A program made the position numbers and the translations under genes. The notes beneath the pieces are model-generated. The model saw nothing but the letters and a program-made list of their open reading frames with translations. It did not search any database and was not told where the DNA came from. A DNA stretch of 64,000 bases from a virus (Duplodnaviria > Caudoviricetes): IMG/VR virus record IMGVR_UViG_2671180089_000001, positions 1-64,000 of that record. One strand, 5' to 3'. Positions within the stretch are counted from its first letter, which is position 1; the number at the start of each line of letters is the position of its first letter. Below are positions 50,177-63,400 of this stretch, in pieces.

Positions 50177-50383
50177 GCGGTCCTCTCCCATGCGTCGATG
50201 TCCCGACGGCGGGGGAGGGCTGCGAGCCCGCGGACTTCAACCGCGGCGCCCCGCCTCGCAAGCAGGGCGATGCCGTCATGGCCGACCCCCACCCGCCACC
50301 GGGCCGCCTCCGCCCTCGTTCCGGTTGGGGCGGAGCCGGGGCCCCGCCGCTACCGGTGACGTCGCCGGGCGCTGCAGAACCGC
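50177..50383 (-). ncRNA. Candidate structured 5' leader with tRNA-like arms
   Basis: T-arm-like CGCGG-UUGAAGU-CCGCG, an anticodon-like arm with a 7-nt loop, and a closing helix; the 5' end is complementary to the RBS region. Confidence 0.45.
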
Positions 50384-55424: not shown

Positions 55425-57194
55425 ATGCCTGGTATCACCGCGCCTCAGCGCGCCCGCACGTCCCGCCGACCGACTGGCCTGCCGAACCCGCCGATGATCC
55501 TTATCGCGGGCCCGGAGAAGACCGGCAAGAGCCGCGTTGCGGCTGAGGGCACCGCCTCCGAGCTGGTCGGGATGACGTACTGGATCGAGATCGGCGGCTC
55601 CGAGGGCACGGCCGACTACTACGGTCGGATCCCCGGGGCCAACTACGAGATCGTGTCCCACAATGGCAGCTACCAGGACATCCTCGACGCCGTTCGGTGG
55701 GCCGTCGCGCAGCCGCCTGCCGTCGAGGGCAAGCGGAACATGATCGTGGTCGACAACGTGTCCGTGCTGTGGGACATGCTCAGCGACGAGCAGGCCCTCT
55801 ACGCCCGGTGGCGCGCGGAGAGGAAGGCGCAGGAGCAGCGCCGCCGCGGCCCGAACCCGGACCTTCCCGTCACGGTGGACCCCGACCTGTGGAACCGGGC
55901 GAAGGACCGATGGGGAGAGATCCTCTGGCTTCTGCGTCGGCACTCCGGCCCCACGATCCTGCTCGCCCGCCAGGAACTCGTCACCGCGTTCGAGAACGAC
56001 AAGCCGACCCGGGACAAGACCCGCAAGACCAAGGCCGAGAAGAACCTCCCGGCGTCCGTTGACGCCATCGTTGAACTTCACGCGCTGGGGGAGGCGTACC
56101 TGACCGGCGTGCGCACCCTGCACTGGGAAGTCACGCCCGGACAGAGCGAGCGGTTCGAGAATTTCAGTATCGACACCCTGCTCCGCCGCATGGGCTTTCA
56201 GGAGGCCGCGGCCGCCCGACAGGTCACCGAGACGCGGCCGCACGCGTACCTGGACGAGCAGCAGGTGCAGCGGGAGCAGCAGCAGCGCCCCCAGCAGCAG
56301 CGACAGCAGCGGCCCGACCAACGGCAGGGGCAGGGGCCCGCCCGGCAGGACGAGCGGCCGAAGCTGACCGGCGACCAGGCCGTCGAGCTGATCCGTAAGG
56401 CGCTCGCCGACGAGAACAACCCGGAGGCCGCGCTGCACAACATCCGGGAACAGTGGGGCATGGTCACCCTGCGGCAGATCCAGACCCGCACAGAGGCCTG
56501 GGGCGGGATGAACGCGGACGACCTGATCACCCGCTCCCTCGCATACGCCAAGGGCCGCGCCGAACAGAAGCGGCAGCAGGGAACCGGGAGCGCCGGGCAG
56601 GCCCCGTCCGCGCAGCCGAGCACGGCTCCGAGTGCGCCTCCGGAGCAAACTCCGACCGCATCCACGGCCACGCCCCCGGCCCAAGGCCAGGGCCAGGGCC
56701 AGCCGGAGGGTGCCCGCGAGCACCAGACGCACGAGGACCTCGAGCCGCCGGCCGATGACAACGCACCCCCGCCGCCGCCGGACCCCCAGTTCGACGACGA
56801 GCCCCCGGTCGACGAGCGCCCGGAGGAGGTCAGCGAGGCCGAGGAGCCCCAGGCGGCCCCCTCCGCACCGGCAGCCGCCGCGGCGCCTCGGGCAACGCGC
56901 CAGACGCGCGGCGAAAAGCTGGCACTCAAGGCGCTGAACGCCGAGGCAGTCGTCCAGGCCCGGATCAAGATGATGACGGTGGGTGAGCACCTCGGGCCTA
57001 TCTCCGAGGCGGGCGACCCGCCCATGACCGTGCTCCGGGACTACCTCCAGCAGCACCGGCCCGTGATCATCGCCCAGCTCGAGCAGGAGGGGCAGACGGA
57101 GCTCGCCGCCTACTACCGGAAGGCGCCGACCGTCGATCCTCAGATTCAGCAGAGGTTCGCTCAGTACTTCGAGGGCGCGCCCGCCGGGAAGTGA
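55425..57194 (+). CDS. AAA_24/Sak4-like recombination ATPase with a long low-complexity C-terminal region
   Basis: AGPEKTGKS, IVVDNVS; AGAGCAA hairpin at 55382-55396. Confidence 0.75.
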   Translation: MPGITAPQRARTSRRPTGLPNPPMILIAGPEKTGKSRVAAEGTASELVGMTYWIEIGGSEGTADYYGRIPGANYEIVSHNGSYQDILDAVRWAVAQPPAVEGKRNMIVVDNVSVLWDMLSDEQALYARWRAERKAQEQRRRGPNPDLPVTVDPDLWNRAKDRWGEILWLLRRHSGPTILLARQELVTAFENDKPTRDKTRKTKAEKNLPASVDAIVELHALGEAYLTGVRTLHWEVTPGQSERFENFSIDTLLRRMGFQEAAAARQVTETRPHAYLDEQQVQREQQQRPQQQRQQRPDQRQGQGPARQDERPKLTGDQAVELIRKALADENNPEAALHNIREQWGMVTLRQIQTRTEAWGGMNADDLITRSLAYAKGRAEQKRQQGTGSAGQAPSAQPSTAPSAPPEQTPTASTATPPAQGQGQGQPEGAREHQTHEDLEPPADDNAPPPPPDPQFDDEPPVDERPEEVSEAEEPQAAPSAPAAAAAPRATRQTRGEKLALKALNAEAVVQARIKMMTVGEHLGPISEAGDPPMTVLRDYLQQHRPVIIAQLEQEGQTELAAYYRKAPTVDPQIQQRFAQYFEGAPAGK

Positions 57195-57276
57195 CGTGAG
57201 GTGATGCGCGCCCGGCCCCCTTCGGGCGCGCGCCTCCGCCGCTCCGCTCCTCCGCGCTTTCATCACCTCACGTCAC
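57191..57276. repeat. 16-bp perfect inverted repeat of GTGA(C/G/T) units
   Basis: GTGACGTGAGGTGATG / CATCACCTCACGTCAC. Confidence 0.7.
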
Positions 57277-57946
57277 CTCGGCACGGCACGGCGCGCCCGC
57301 CCTCCCCCGTGCGCGCGCTCTGGTGATCGCGCGTCCAGTCCGGGACCGCGCTGCTCCGCGCCCGCGCCGTACCTACCGGCGCGCCCGGGCGCGCGCGTTC
57401 GGGCGCGCTCGGCATCGAGGCGCGCCCGAACGCGCGCGCCGCGCGCCGGCCGTGTGGAGCGCGCCTCCACGCGCGCGCTCAGGCGCGCCGGGCGCGCGCC
57501 GTGCCCGCGCCGATCCGGGCGCGCCCTCCGTAGATCGCGCGCGCCCGGATCGCATGGACCGCGCGCCCGCGCCGAGCCTCCCGCGCTCAGGCGCGCCCGC
57601 AGCAGCGCGCCATGGCGCGCACCGTTGACCTGCCCTTTTACAGGGCGCGCCGCGCGCCTGGCCGTCGCGCGCCACGATGGGCGCGGCCTCCTGGATATCG
57701 TCGGCCACGCGCGCCGGCCGTGTGGAGCGCGCCGCGCGGCGCGGTGATCGCTTCTCAACGGCGCGCGCCCGGCGGCGCGGATGACCAGGCGGGTGCGCGC
57801 CGACCGGCCGATCGCGCGCGCAGGGCCGCGCCCCAGGAACGCGCGCCGCCGCGCCCTCGGGCGCACCCCGGACACGACGAAGGGCGCGCCATCGGGCGCG
57901 CCCTTCGGGGAGGAACGGTCAGCCGGTGGCGCGCCCTATCGCGCGC
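57206..57946. repeat. GCGCGC-saturated non-coding tract
   Basis: About 30 runs of GCGCGC or longer by manual count; 25-bp direct repeat at 57441-57465 and 57709-57733. Confidence 0.85.
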
Positions 57947-58757
57947 CCTGCCGGGCCGCACGGCGGACCGCACGCCGCGCCCTGCGCTCCTCCGCGGCCT
58001 TCTCAAGCGCGCCGCCGCGCTCCTGGCGCAGCAGCTCCATCAGCTCCTCGGGGTGCCGCTCGCCGAGGACCTTGAGCGCCTGAAGCCGAACGTTCGGTTC
58101 GCTCGGCATCCGGCCCTGGCGCGCCTCCCCGTACTGGACGGAGTAGCGCAGGTACGCGGCCTCGGACTCCACGCGCCGGCGGAAGTTCTCGACCCGGCGC
58201 TCCTGTGCGTTGCCGCTCTCGCCCGCGGGCGGCTCGGGCATGAAGCGGGCCGGCTCCTCGATCATGAGGCGGCACAGACGCGCCACTCTCCCGGCTACTC
58301 TCGGTGAGCGGAAAGCAAGGGCCTCGACATGCGGGGACGTCGGGGCGGGCACTGGCTCGTCGAGGACGAAACCTGTCCACCGGTCCGCGAACGAGTCGTC
58401 ACCGAGGGCGGCCAGTTCCTTCGCGTGGTCGTGGGCCAGGTCGTCGACGACGTCCTCGAACGGCGGCATCGCTGCCTTGATCGTCTCTCGCCACGGCGCG
58501 ATGCGGGCCTGCTGCTGCTTCCTGGTCTCGCCCTCCCGGATGGGGTTGTAGGCCTTCGCCCGCTGCACGGCGGTTCGGAGCGCCTGGAGAGTGCGAGGGG
58601 CGAGACGGGGATCGTGAAGGGCGGCGCCCTGGGTCTCGCGCGGCGCGCGCCTGTTGGTGCCACCGGTGACGTACTGGACGACGGTGTCCGTGAAGGCGTC
58701 GGGGCTCATCTCGGACAAACGCTTGATCTCCGCCGCAACCTGTCGGGCATCGGCCAT
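57936..58757 (-). CDS. Hypothetical protein
   Basis: AGAGCA hairpin 58783-58800 plus RBS GGAGGA. Confidence 0.75.
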   Translation of the reverse strand: MADARQVAAEIKRLSEMSPDAFTDTVVQYVTGGTNRRAPRETQGAALHDPRLAPRTLQALRTAVQRAKAYNPIREGETRKQQQARIAPWRETIKAAMPPFEDVVDDLAHDHAKELAALGDDSFADRWTGFVLDEPVPAPTSPHVEALAFRSPRVAGRVARLCRLMIEEPARFMPEPPAGESGNAQERRVENFRRRVESEAAYLRYSVQYGEARQGRMPSEPNVRLQALKVLGERHPEELMELLRQERGGALEKAAEERRARRAVRRAARQGAR

Positions 58758-58826
58758 GTACGTGTTCCTCCGCTTCGGGTGTGACCCGTGCTCTCGGGCC
58801 CTGGTGTCGTACTGCCTGCTGAGACA

Positions 58827-59059
58827 CAACGAGGTGACCGCACTGGGCGCGGAGATGCGTGTGCCGGATCTTCGTAGGAGCATCCACTCCCCGGCCCCGA
58901 GTGCTCTACACACACCCGGTTACTCGATTCGCTATGGCCAGGTAACCAACGGGCGAGAGGAACACCCCAGCTCTTGCGAGCGGCGTGGTCTTGAGCCCAT
59001 GAACCCTGAACCGGAACCTCGAACGCATTCTTCGCGGCCGCGGTACGGCCACCTCGTTG
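58827..59059 (-). ncRNA. Candidate ~233-nt structured ncRNA
   Basis: 17-bp terminal helix (two G-U pairs on the minus strand), inner helices, GCAA tetraloop, -10 TACCAT at 59063-59068. Confidence 0.6.
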
Positions 59060-59103
59060 CAGATGGTACCCGTCGGCCGGGGGCCAGCCGTGCCCTGTGG
59101 GCC

Positions 59104-59427
59104 CTAGTCGGCCTGCTGGGGCGTCTTCTTCGTGGTGAGACTCTCGATGATCGGGGCGAGCTTGCTGGGCTTCCACACGAGGTCGTAGCTCGTCTGGGAG
59201 GCAGCGAGCACGGCGAGGATGGTGACCGTGGTCAGCTTGCCGTGCTGGAACTGGTCCCAGCCGCCGTCCGCGGCCACGGCGACGACGCCGGCGACGAGCG
59301 CGGCTAGGACCGCAATGACCTTCTTGTACTTCGCCGACCAGGCGGGGCGCTGCACAACCGCGGTGAGCAGCGGAAGCACAGCGCCGACCTGGCCGCCGGT
59401 GGAGAGAGCGTCAAGCGTTGCAGACAT
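59104..59427 (-). CDS. Putative holin
   Basis: Three hydrophobic segments (LPLLTAVVQRPAWS...); 107 aa; late promoter 59466-59495. Confidence 0.7.
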   Translation of the reverse strand: MSATLDALSTGGQVGAVLPLLTAVVQRPAWSAKYKKVIAVLAALVAGVVAVAADGGWDQFQHGKLTTVTILAVLAASQTSYDLVWKPSKLAPIIESLTTKKTPQQAD

Positions 59428-59503
59428 GGGTGTTGCCCTTCATGCGTGGGGTGCGTGTCGGGCGGACTGTGCGCGCGGGCGGCCCCTTGCGTCGCGTGCT
59501 GGC

Positions 59504-59932
59504 TCAGCCGTCAGGCCGGTTGGCCAGGTCCTCGGCGATCTCTCCCGGCGGAGCGGGGACGGGCCGCTCGTAAAGCCTCGCGACCAGGGCGCGGAGCTGG
59601 TGGATGTAGTCGACGGCCGCAGCCTTCCACCGTCTCCACTGCCGTTGCTCCTCCTCCAGGCGCTCGACCCTGTTCTCCAGGGTGGTCACGCGCTCGAGCG
59701 TCTTCGCGTTTGTCTCGCGCTGCTGCTCGAGGAGCTGGGTGAAACCGTTGGTCACGGTCTGGACGGAGGTGACGAAGGTGGTGGCCTCCGCGGTCTCCGC
59801 ATCGGTGTCGTTCTTCTGTCTGTTCTGGCGGTACACCATCCAGGCCGCGCCCAGCACGCCCACCGTGCTGAATGCTGGGCTGAGGACAGGCGCCAGAGAG
59901 ACGAGCCACTCCATGAGCGCCTCCTCGGTCAT
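59504..59932 (-). CDS. Membrane-anchored coiled-coil lysis-module protein
   Basis: N-terminal TM, coiled coil, C-terminal PAPP; adjacent to the holin. Confidence 0.6.
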   Translation of the reverse strand: MTEEALMEWLVSLAPVLSPAFSTVGVLGAAWMVYRQNRQKNDTDAETAEATTFVTSVQTVTNGFTQLLEQQRETNAKTLERVTTLENRVERLEEEQRQWRRWKAAAVDYIHQLRALVARLYERPVPAPPGEIAEDLANRPDG

Positions 59933-60015
59933 CGGTCGTCAGTAGGGATGCGCGGGAGCCGGGGCCCGAAAGCCCGCGGCTCCCCGCAGCCGGAAAGCTG
60001 CACCATGCGAGGGGC

Positions 60016-60399
60016 TTATGTCGTTGCGTTCATCGTCTCGGCGGTCGGCGCGGGCCCGACGCCGGCGACGGCGTTCCATCCCGCACGCACTGCCTCGAGG
60101 ATCTGCTCGTCGGAGATCGCTGCGGCCATGGTTGCGGTATCGGTTGAGCTGGCGGCCGCCGCGGCGGCGAGCAGCGTTGGGGAGACGACGAGGCCGACCA
60201 TCATGGAGGCGGCTTGTGCCTCCGAGGGGCTGAGTACGGTCTTCGCCAAGTTCCAGCGCAGCGGGTAACCGGGCGACGTCGACGCCTCAACGAACACTTC
60301 CTGCGCGATGACGGCGATGGCCATGCGGACGCGTGGCAGTAAAGACGCCTCGGAGGCCAGGGCGCACATCGTGGTCAAGGACAGGGGTAGAGCGGGCAT
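60016..60399 (-). CDS. Small tail-associated protein
   Basis: Follows the tail-fibre gene; ...ISDEQILEAVRAGWNAVAG. Confidence 0.55.
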   Translation of the reverse strand: MPALPLSLTTMCALASEASLLPRVRMAIAVIAQEVFVEASTSPGYPLRWNLAKTVLSPSEAQAASMMVGLVVSPTLLAAAAAASSTDTATMAAAISDEQILEAVRAGWNAVAGVGPAPTAETMNATT

Positions 60400-60411
60400 C
60401 GCGGGGCTTCC

Positions 60412-63400
60412 TCACTTGGTGTAGGTGACGCGGAGCTTGGGGGGGTTGGTCTGGCCGTAGCCGCGGGCGCGGCCGTAGTACGTCGACGACGTGGAATTCG
60501 GGTCCAGCGCGATACCGCGCCACTTCGTACTGTCGAAAACGCTGGTGATATCGACCCACTTGCCTTCATTGCGGGCCCACGAGATCGTCTTGCCTTCACT
60601 GTCGGAGGAGAACGTTGCCGGCCGCGAGGCGTGGCTGTGGGCCTTGATCACGGCCTTGCCGCCCGCGTTCGCGTACCAGTGATCGAAGTAGAGGTAGACC
60701 TCGGCCTTGTTGATCGTCGCGCCCGACAGGTCGGAGGACAGGCTCGACGGGAAGCCGATCAGTGAGGCTTGCGTGCCGTTCGTCGACGAGTAGTAGCCCT
60801 GGTAGCAGGAGTTCTTGTAGTACGAGTTGTAGGAGCCGCGGCCCGCGTATGAGCCGGACCAGGAACACGCATACGTCTTGGTGACCTTCTTCGGGGTCGG
60901 CGCGGTGGTGCCGCCGCCGTCGTTGTAGCCACCGGTCTCGGGGATGTACGGGCCGATGTCCTCGATGTAGAAGTAGCCGCGCGAGTTCACAGCGCCATAC
61001 ATCTCGCATGTCTGCCCCGACGGACCGAGCGAGTTCATGAACGTGATCAGGAACCGGTGCGTACCGGCGCCGAGACTGGGGCCGGATTCGATGTGCTCCA
61101 GCCAGCTCGTGAAGCTGTTGCCGACAGGCATGGGTGCGACGGAGATGTATTTCTGCGTCGAATTGATCGTAGGCGTACCGGTTCCGCCGTCACGAAGGCG
61201 CAGTTGCAGCTCTCCACCGCCCGCGGACGGGTTCGCGCGGGCGGAGAACACGAACCGGTACATACGCGTTTCGTCGATGTCGGCGGCCAGCTCCACGAAA
61301 CCCATCTCGGTGCCGGATGCTGTGCGGGTGGTGATCTGGTAATCGATGGCCTGGATGCCGCGCGGAACGAGGTTCAGGTATTCCGAGAGGTCCGCTCCGC
61401 CGATGGTGAGGGTGTCGGCGACGGCCAGGCGCTGGAAGCCGGCGGCGCCGTCCTGGTCGATGGTGGCCACGGGCACGCCGTCGGTGCTGAGCGTCAGGTA
61501 GTTCGGGCGGCCGGTGACGAGCGCGACCGCTTCCTCTCCTGCGTCGTCGTAGAGCTGCAGACCCATCGGGGAGATCTCGGCGCGCTGCCCGGCGAAGCCG
61601 GAGGCGGTCACGTACCGGGCCTCGGCGTTGTCCCATGTCACCGTGCCCGCAGTGGAAGAGACCGACTTGAGGCGCACAACCACCTGCGTGGTGTTCGCCG
61701 GGGCCGCGACGCTGGCGACTCCGGCAATCCGCGTCCATGCCTCCTTCACAGTGGCGCCCGAGCCGGAGGTGATGACGGCGACGCCGAGCGAGGTACCGGC
61801 GGCGTTGCGCCACTCGGCGTAGATGCTGACCCGGTCGCCGGCCCAGTCCGCGGAGGCGAGGTAGTCGACGGCGAGGTACATCTTCTGGCCGGGGACCGCG
61901 GGAATGGGCCCGACCAGGTACATCTCTAGGGACGACGCCGCGTTGTTGCGCAGGGCCTGAGCGGTGCCGTTGCCGCCTGCGACGACGGACCAGGCGGTGT
62001 TGCCCGCGACCCGCTGCGCGGTCACGGCCCCCTCGAAGGAGGGGTCGGCAATGAGGTTGCCGTCGGTGCCGAGCGACAGCCGGTCCGCGGTCAGGGAGCC
62101 CGCCTTGATGTGCGTGGCGTCGATGACCCCGGCCGCGATCTTCGTGGCGGTCACCGAGTTCACGGCCAGCTTGTCCGCGGTCACGGACAGAGCGGCGATC
62201 TTGTCCGCGGTGATCGCCAACGCCGCGATCTTTTCGGCGGTCACGCCCAGGGCCATGAGCTTGTCCGTGGTGATCGCCCCGGCGAGAATCTTCGGCGCGG
62301 TGACCGAACCGTCGGCGATCTGCACCCCTGCCACCACCGGGCGCACGGCCGCATTGTCGAAGCGGACCGCGCCGAGCGTTGTCCCCGCCGACTCAAGGCG
62401 GATCCTCGCGTTCGCGGCCAGCGCGGGCGCCGTCACCGTCGCGGTCATCCGCGTCCACGTCTCCCGCGCCGGCGTACTCGTCAGCGCCTTCCCGAAGGTG
62501 AGGCGAGTCCCGGCCGCGTCATCCCACCGCGCCTGCAAGTTGATCTCGGTGCCGTTCCAGTCGCTGGACACCCAGTAGTCGACAGCCAGGTACAGCTGGT
62601 CGCCCGGCAGCACGGGCACGTTGGTGACAGGCACCTGGAAGGTGGAGGGGGCGGCGGCAACGCAGTCGATTTTGATGCTGGCCGGCGACCCGTTGCCCAT
62701 CGTCTTGTCCTGCGACGCGTAGGCGATCCCGGCGACCTGCGCGGCTGTGTAGGCGCCCTCGAACGACGGGTCGGACAGCAGGTTGGAGCCGCCGATTATC
62801 GTCAGCTTCTCTGCCGTCACGGACCCTGCTGCGATCTCGCGGGCCGTGACGGCGTCTGTCGCGATCTTTCCTGCGACGACCGCGTTCGCGGCGATCGCTG
62901 GTCCTGTCACCGCGTTCTCGGCGAGCTTCCCGACCTTGACGGCGTTGTCGGCGAGTTTCTCGGTGAGGATTGCGCCATCGGCAAGTGCAGTCGTCCCGAC
63001 CGCGCCGAGTGCGATCTTCGCCTCCGTGACAGCGTTCTCGGCGAGCTTGACCTCGGTGACGATCCCGTCGATGAGGTCCTGCTCCACGGCCTGGCGCGGC
63101 TTGCCCGCCACAGCCACTGAGGGAGCGCCGGTCAGGCCCGCGGTGCTGAGGGCGATCAGGCGCACCCAGCGCTCCTCGTAGCCCTCTACCGCGACGGTGA
63201 CGCTTCCGCCGGTGACGTCGGTGATGGCCGCGGCCAGGGTGACGGGCTCGGGGGTGAAGTCGGCGGCCGGGCCCAGGTGGACCTGCAGCGCGGCGAAGTC
63301 GGTGGGCGGCGCGTTGGAGTCGTCCCACCAGCCGTCCCAGGTGACGACCAGGCCGGCCAGTGCGGGGGCCACAAGGGGGGCGCCGGGCGTGGGCGGCGGG

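Follow-up and report, generated by a model that had tools for sequence, protein, structure and literature searches.

The minus strand of a 64,000-nucleotide (nt) stretch of viral DNA (positions 1 to 64,000 of IMG/VR record IMGVR_UViG_2671180089_000001) carries a previously undescribed structured RNA about 215-250 nt long. We refer to the whole stretch, which is part of a 126-kb virus record, as the window; all coordinates are positions in it, and there the RNA measures about 235 nt. The element lies between two minus-strand genes, P0002 upstream and P0001 downstream, which are separated by ~345 non-coding bases. It is restricted to a family of ~125-kb Streptomyces phage-plasmids, relatives of Streptomyces phage Gilgamesh (MN234216.1). 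Judging from sequence comparison, the RNA is a new family with a well-supported structure, and its general kind, that of structured regulatory or non-coding RNAs, is a familiar one. We tentatively favour the reading that it is the structured 5' leader of the P0001 transcription unit, and put the chance of this at slightly less than even.

Homologues were collected from IMG/VR by a protein-guided scan and three pattern scans, from a pattern scan of one genome per species, and from a covariance-model survey of Streptomyces genomes. From these searches came 29 distinct copies of full length, together with a truncated one and several that are more divergent. The full-length homologues came from phage Gilgamesh, from IMG/VR contigs and from ~125-kb Streptomyces contigs and plasmids. 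Alignment of 29 sequences with MAFFT, followed by RNAalifold, recovered helices P1, P4 and P5 and a hairpin preceding the P0001 ribosome-binding site, with double changes in 12 of 35 pairs. A more complete structure, drawn up for the 15 closest sequences, served as the basis of a covariance model, to which all 29 sequences were then realigned. In this alignment, standard pairs occupied 96.2% of 1626 cells, compared with 87.9% in shuffles, and both sides had changed in 32 of the 62 pairs, compared with 12.3. None of 500 shuffles matched any of the five measures, and sliding the pairing partners by one to three columns as a control left ~40% paired. A realignment fitted to a model is somewhat favourable to that model; the unfitted MAFFT result agrees with it in direction.

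The structure belongs to the minus strand. Folding of positions 58820-59068 with RNAfold gave -118.5 kcal/mol for this strand (z -4.27, with none of 200 shuffles as good) and -100.5 kcal/mol for the plus strand (z -2.06, 4/200). Among the paired columns, G-U or U-G combinations filled 149 cells in 32 pairs, whereas A-C or C-A combinations filled 23 cells in 8 pairs. The covariance model scored 240 bits on the sense strand of the window and 21.5 bits on the antisense strand. The excess of G-U over A-C and the two model scores point to a minus-strand RNA and therefore disfavour a repeat acting at the DNA level. Such a feature, an inverted operator pair or transposon ends with no RNA function, would account for the 17-bp inverted repeat that forms P1 and for the unusual conservation of the P1 sequence. 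We nevertheless consider it very improbable, given the G-U bias, the compensatory changes in five further nested helices beyond P1, and the single RNA copy per genome in the phage record and three host genomes. The copy number and the 149:23 ratio together exclude the DNA repeat, such as the end of a miniature inverted-repeat transposable element, that had been named as an alternative in an earlier note on this DNA made from its sequence alone.

The element does not encode a conserved protein, in agreement with the earlier statement that no convincing open reading frame (ORF) covers it: none of the six frames is open in all 29 homologues. A 48-aa frame starting with GTG in the window ranges from 6 to 104 aa across these homologues and diverges past the first ~10 residues. 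Column identity is 0.84 in the P1 5' arm, 0.92 across P4-P5 and 0.37-0.48 in P3, compared with ~0.54-0.83 in the flanking genes. This uneven profile suggests a functional RNA. The conservation of sequence in P1 and P5 exceeds what pairing requires.

A search with the 4227 models of Rfam 15 found no match inside the element in the region 57500-60500 at E-values up to 10, nor any at E-values up to 1 in five homologous loci. Of the checks proposed in the earlier note, folding, an Rfam search and covariation among homologues returned a stable fold, no known family and compensatory changes in about half of the pairs. Neither Rfam nor our literature searches, which covered main texts, yielded a description of this RNA, and no paper treating Gilgamesh as a Streptomyces phage was found in these searches.

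We next describe the architecture of the RNA, in which a long P1-P2 stem closes a four-way junction from which P3, P4 and P5 emerge (Table 1). Together, P1 (13-18 bp) and P2 (10-13 bp) make up ~30 bp of almost uninterrupted duplex; in clade A, pairing extends through the internal loop that separates the two. The 13 family-wide pairs of P1 are paired in 98.6% of cells, with both-side changes in 6 pairs. The 17-bp version seen in the window was correctly described earlier, including its two G-U pairs that would be A-C on the other strand. P2, of ~12 bp, covaries heavily: both sides have changed in 8 of the 12 pairs of helices 2 and 3. Another option is a small local hairpin within the 5' strand of P2, CGCG-AAGAA-CGCG in most clade B members, which one RNAalifold run preferred to P2; this may be an alternative state, or meaningless.

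The three inner domains differ in how they vary. P3 is the variable one, and its optional hairpin GCUC(GCAA)GAGC (58970-58981) occurs only in the window's own clade, being absent from clades A, C and D. Also within P3, positions 58956-58965 form an unpaired, conserved CU-rich run, GUGUUCCUCU. P4 covaries, with 98.2% of cells paired and both-side changes in 4 of its 8 pairs. P5 is the most conserved part of the RNA; its pairs are invariant in the main clades, and hence neutral on pairing, while in clade C it loses the first one or two inner pairs. The junction strands are UGAGA and UCGAG..AAC. Covarying helices thus surround highly conserved unpaired nucleotides, as in riboswitches and cis-acting leaders. 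Six of the seven helices listed in the earlier note fit this consensus, among them CGCGG/CCGCG and AUGCGU/ACGCAU (together P2), the GCUC(GCAA)GAGC hairpin of P3, P4 and the GGAG/CUCC of inner P5. The seventh, GGUUAC/GUAACC, is unsupported: it is absent from the minimum-energy fold, GUAACC lies in an unpaired junction, and the two strands are non-complementary in most homologues.

Table 1. Positions of the RNA element, its helices and the neighbouring features in the window.
Feature	Positions	Strand	Description
P0002, upstream gene	59104..59427	minus	107 aa, small hydrophobic protein (ORF and translation)
GC-rich hairpin	59069..59103	minus	Between the P0002 stop codon and the -10-like hexamer; terminator-like, without U tract
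-10-like hexamer	59063..59068	minus	TACCAT (family TAnnAT), 3-4 nt before P1
P1 5' arm	59043..59059	minus	CAACGAGGTGGCCGTAC; 17 nt in the window, family-conserved part 13 bp (59043-59055)
P2 5' strand	59023..59036	minus	CGCGAAGA-A-UGCGU in the window
P3, variable branched domain	58936..59012	minus	Helices 4-8; length varies; lowest column identity
P4 hairpin	58897..58919	minus	8 bp, CCGGGUGU/GCACUCGG, loop GUGUAGA; includes AGAGCA at 58902-58907
P5	58863..58895	minus	GCCGG-GGAG-UGGAUG-CUCC-UACGAAGAU-CCGGC; 9-nt 3' bulge
P2 3' strand	58848..58860	minus	ACGCA-UCUCCGCG
P1 3' arm	58827..58843	minus	GTGCGGTCACCTCGTTG; 59055-59043 pairs with 58843-58831, 17 bp in the window
Hairpin before ribosome-binding site	58783..58800	minus	GGCCCG-AGAGCA-CGGGUC, 11 nt before the ribosome-binding site
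Ribosome-binding site of P0001	58764..58771	minus	GGAGGAAC; complementary to 58956-58965 over 10 bp
P0001, downstream gene	57936..58757	minus	273 aa, all-helical, Arg-rich C-terminal tail
GGCGCGCC palindrome cluster	57174..58125	.	12 sites, mostly in the 740-bp gap 3' of P0001

The phage that carries the RNA also has a plasmid form, since the plasmid collection contained three Streptomyces records of 125-130 kb that carry it. One of these is a circular plasmid of 125,380 bp from a complete S. zaomyceticus genome (NZ_CP107934.1). Matches on genome contigs were mostly on contigs of 125-129 kb. Eight of the 151 sampled Streptomyces species genomes (~5%) contained the RNA, one of them as a degenerate copy. 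This copy (28.9 bits; G025:C212, positions 1501-1685) adjoins a partial P0001 homologue (residues 144-245, 37% identity) and looks like part of a decaying prophage in which the two are eroding together. The phage family occurs in three guises: besides the isolated phage and the circular 125-kb plasmid, there are copies on contigs several Mb long (one of them at 3.97 Mb), and some copies may therefore be integrated or misassembled. Every one of the 29 full-length homologues has the order upstream gene, RNA, P0001, and so do four further, divergent copies of clade C, in which P0001 identity falls to ~42%. Two broader scans added no members. Six metagenome loci that matched a 19-base pattern look unrelated and were dismissed as chance, as a nhmmer profile of the family found none of them at E ≤ 0.001. 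A scan with the 15-base GGCTCGCAAGAGCTG returned 62 viral loci, none of which the family profile recovered.

Turning to the start of the RNA, we found that the TACCAT that had been proposed as a -10 element is conserved in 33 distinct sequences as a -10 should be. It reads TACCAT in 24, TATCAT in 6, TAACAT in 2 and TACAAT in 1, so that positions 1, 2, 5 and 6 are fixed. Fixed positions 1, 2, 5 and 6 with free positions 3 and 4 are the behaviour of a -10 element of the sigma-70 type. No -35 element was seen, and a simple scan of the window for the sigma-70 consensus gave no promoter match. We rejected the idea of a repeated phage promoter because GGGTACCATC occurs once in the window and is not enriched there. 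Upstream of the hexamer, the GC-rich hairpin folds in most of the 33 homologues, with a conserved 3' arm, CCGGCGGG, and a 5' arm that varies to match it. A simple terminator scan, which demands a run of T, gave no match at this hairpin on the minus strand.

At the other end, a linker of 70-100 nt separates P1 from the P0001 start codon on the same strand in the 29 full-length and four divergent homologues. This linker contains no strong terminator, only short hairpins of 5-6 bp, the 5-bp ones after P1 lacking a U tract. By eye, the alignments showed no TAnnnT common to the clades between P1 and the P0001 start codon. Since only short hairpins follow P1 and no common -10 was seen for P0001, the simplest transcription unit would be a promoter, the RNA and then P0001. 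The earlier proposal of an independently promoted ~233-nt non-coding RNA (ncRNA) therefore holds in part. Covariation, strand bias and the lack of an ORF bear out a structured non-coding minus-strand RNA. Considering the absence of a strong terminator between the RNA and P0001, a 5' leader is at least as likely as an independent ncRNA.

Two further features of the linker bear on this. The hairpin just before the ribosome-binding site forms 4 pairs in RNAalifold, two of which change from C-G to U-A, each in single sequences. Its loop is a second AGAGCA that the earlier note did not mention, in addition to the one it had correctly placed in what is now P4. The loop differs in clade C (AAUGCAG, GGAGCAG), and two homologues have another hairpin at this place. 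The second feature is a 10-bp pairing that the CU-rich strand of P3 can form with GGAGGAACAC in the window (p 0.05); in many members, mainly of clade B, no other stretch makes a better duplex with the ribosome-binding region than this strand. An alternative pairing between the linker and the 5' strand of P4 was dropped, being seen by eye and in clade A only. We favour the leader because of the boundaries of the unit, the conserved hairpin at the ribosome-binding site and the complementarity of the CU-rich strand with GGAGGAACAC.

As a 5' leader, the element could work as follows. The GC-rich hairpin would terminate transcription of the upstream gene, and a -35-less promoter with the TAnnAT hexamer would start a transcript at the foot of P1, so that its 5' end would be buried in the P1-P2 stem. 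The near-invariant junction strands, the P4 loop and the P5 bulge would form a pocket or platform for a ligand or protein, possibly P0001 itself; the junction and the P5 bulge in particular look like such a binding site in the alignment. Occupancy would then be relayed to the ribosome-binding site 70-100 nt downstream through the hairpin with the AGAGCA loop. In many members, the CU-rich strand of P3 might also take part in this relay by pairing with the Shine-Dalgarno region.

Several observations weigh against the leader. We infer the promoter, the 5' end, the co-transcription with P0001 and the regulatory output from sequence; a search for RNA sequencing runs containing the region 58000-60000 found none. 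For the duplex between the CU-rich strand and the ribosome-binding site, just 11 of the 29 members give p ≤ 0.05 (mean z -1.3), and covariation is impossible there, the Shine-Dalgarno sequence being fixed. We found neither a mutually exclusive pairing nor a terminator/antiterminator pair that is conserved. The homologues all come from one collinear phage family, and their shared gene order therefore says little about a functional link. P0001 could be assigned neither to a family nor to a convincing fold, which leaves no ligand or feedback loop to propose. P1 is far longer and more stable here than in known riboswitches, and a terminal stem that unites both ends is typical of stable stand-alone RNAs.

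That stem is one argument for a different reading, in which the element is a stable, stand-alone ncRNA acting in trans, made from its own promoter or cut from a longer transcript, with the P1-P2 stem guarding both ends. We regard this as possible, with a probability clearly below that of the leader. Such an RNA would bind a host or phage protein, or pair its CU-rich strand with the G-rich ribosome-binding sites of other mRNAs. In the terminal stem, the predicted 5' end indeed meets the 3' end, the sequence of P1 and P5 is conserved beyond pairing needs, and the -10-like hexamer is correctly spaced. The conserved unpaired CU-rich strand may also resemble the C-rich seed regions of small RNAs in Gram-positive bacteria. 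Conversely, P1 is followed by no convincing terminator, just 5-bp hairpins without a U tract. The lack of a clade-common TAnnnT for P0001 in the linker further suggests that transcription probably continues into P0001. The same long stem could instead be a processing or stability element, with the ~30-bp P1-P2 duplex as an RNase III site. The duplex would allow the P0001 message to be cut free of the late lysis transcript, or would protect the end of that message, and the remaining fold would be secondary. RNase III sites between phage genes are well known, as in T7 and lambda, and the nearly continuous duplex, including the paired internal loop of clade A, would suit one. This explanation is improbable in our view: it leaves the near-invariant P5, the junction nucleotides, the covarying P3 and P4 and the -10-like hexamer unexplained, and the upstream hairpin is terminator-like, so that read-through may be small.

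The plasmid state of the family raises another explanation, namely that the RNA serves replication or copy control in that state, either as a primer-type origin RNA or as the leader of a maintenance protein, P0001, acting on the GGCGCGCC array. The three plasmid records, one of them circular, and the many ~125-kb contigs are consistent with this, as is the location of the RNA: it follows the virion and lysis genes and adjoins both the conserved GGCGCGCC array and a replication module that includes IstB/DnaC-like and AAA_24 proteins. There is a precedent in mycobacteriophages, where a transcribed non-coding region after the tail genes is reported to be necessary and sufficient for prophage replication (PMC7157519). 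Like these extrachromosomal prophage 'ori' RNAs of cluster A mycobacteriophages (Wetzel et al. 2020, PMC7157519), the present RNA comes from a non-coding region of an actinobacteriophage persisting as a plasmid, is central in the genome, after the virion genes and apparently near maintenance functions, and requires no ORF. Those 'ori' regions span 400-600 bp, adjoin parABS and are transcribed away from parA, and no conserved fold is reported for them in the sections consulted; here, in contrast, ~235 nt fold around a four-way junction and a same-strand gene follows directly. As P0001 has no Rep-like or DNA-binding family, no antisense -10 was seen in the conserved alignment blocks, and the genome has its own replication genes elsewhere, we think a role in replication or copy control unlikely, about on a par with the RNase III site.

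Comparison with other known systems gave partial likenesses. Riboswitch aptamers and protein-binding leaders share with this RNA a position 5' of a same-strand gene, covarying helices around a near-invariant junction or bulge, and one domain of variable length. It differs from riboswitch leaders in the lack of an Rfam match, the ~30-bp terminal stem, the absence of any alternative pairing found and the lack of an evident ligand. The leaders of rep genes under antisense RNA control (R1 CopT, ColE2, IncB) are likewise structured leaders on plasmid-like replicons with hairpins near the ribosome-binding site, whereas no conserved antisense promoter was seen here and P0001 is not a recognisable Rep. 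6S RNA and Ms1, whose role as a polymerase decoy had been suggested earlier for this element, also fall in the 200-300 nt range and have both ends paired. They form a long hairpin with a central bubble resembling an open promoter, unlike the four-way junction here, and the lack of an Rfam match also speaks against this suggestion. A sponge for an AGAGCA-binding factor, also suggested, fared no better: CGAGAGCA has 6 sites in the window where 3.3 are expected, 11 of 100 shuffles reach as many, and we therefore rejected it as a repeated site for such a factor. None of the results supports the third suggestion, a packaging RNA. A retron msr-msd does not fit either, as there is no adjacent reverse transcriptase (RT) and neither P0001 nor P0002 has an RT or other significant Pfam family. 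Two cases of rRNA mimicry were also rejected. The host 23S rRNA around the sarcin-ricin loop lacks the P5 stem. The P1 5' arm agrees with the host 16S rRNA (helix 45 and the anti-Shine-Dalgarno tail) in 13 of 14 bases; shuffling the RNA, however, gave an equally good match to the rRNA operon in 150 of 200 cases, no more than chance would give.

In Gilgamesh, to which the window is 77% identical across 58700-59200, genes 75 and 76 are separated by a corresponding gap that carries no annotation. P0002 is the homologue of Gilgamesh gene 75, annotated as a hypothetical protein. Its earlier naming as a holin was a guess, since it has no significant Pfam or PHROG match. P0001 has a predicted structure (predicted local distance difference test, pLDDT, 88.8) and 88 relatives besides itself, of which every named one comes from Streptomyces. 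This number suggests that far more loci exist than the 29 aligned here. Nothing usable on its function came from Pfam, PHROGs, Foldseek against the PDB, a wide VIA-align search (best Z 5.9) or the protein atlas. A protein-atlas match to lambda P was rejected, its score of 0.81 being at chance level.

Downstream of P0001 lies the cluster of GGCGCGCC, an 8-base palindrome with 24 sites in the window, half of them within this cluster. It is present downstream of the P0001 homologue in 4-18 copies at 17 of the 22 loci checked, with 0-1 copies upstream; the other five loci, one of them incomplete, have 0-2 copies downstream. The cluster could be a protein-binding array, such as a partition site or iterons, or stacked bidirectional terminators. 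The 740-bp gap that holds most of it lies between the convergent P0001 and AAA_24 genes, and it also contains many GCGCGC variants and perfect 21-nt inverted repeats. Past the gap, the opposite strand encodes the AAA_24 protein, a DUF2637 membrane protein and an IstB/DnaC-like ATPase. The RNA itself follows the tail and lysis genes and neighbours both the GGCGCGCC array and the replication module. A ParB-like gene lies ~8 kb from the RNA, and no ParA family was found. Gilgamesh genes 51, 84 and 92 are annotated as a ribosome modulation factor, a ParB-like protein and the phage's own RNA polymerase sigma factor, the last two lying further along than the replication module. The sole tRNA of the window is a minus-strand tRNA-Arg (anticodon GCG) at 50221-50296. 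A weak minus-strand match to the Rfam osmY RNA at 59800-59872 (24.7 bits against a gathering threshold of 46.9, E 0.009) lies inside an ORF at 59504-59932 and is probably due to chance.

Large new RNA families with strong covariation are rare, and several past ones proved to be riboswitches or parts of ribonucleoproteins. If this RNA merely leads one orphan gene, it would be of modest interest. Gilgamesh is an isolated phage that grows on S. lividans, which makes the RNA directly testable. The RNA marks a conserved three-part module, consisting of the RNA itself, a helical protein and the GGCGCGCC array, at the place where the late and replication arms of the genome join. In extrachromosomal actinobacteriophages, this join is the site of maintenance functions. 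It is conceivable, if a long shot, that the RNA represents a new class of large structured RNA and that, with P0001 and the adjacent GGCGCGCC array, it makes up the module for maintenance or copy control in this widespread family of phage-plasmids from Streptomyces. The junction of the RNA would then sense a cellular signal or the level of P0001, and thereby set the amount of a maintenance protein or prime replication in the plasmid state.
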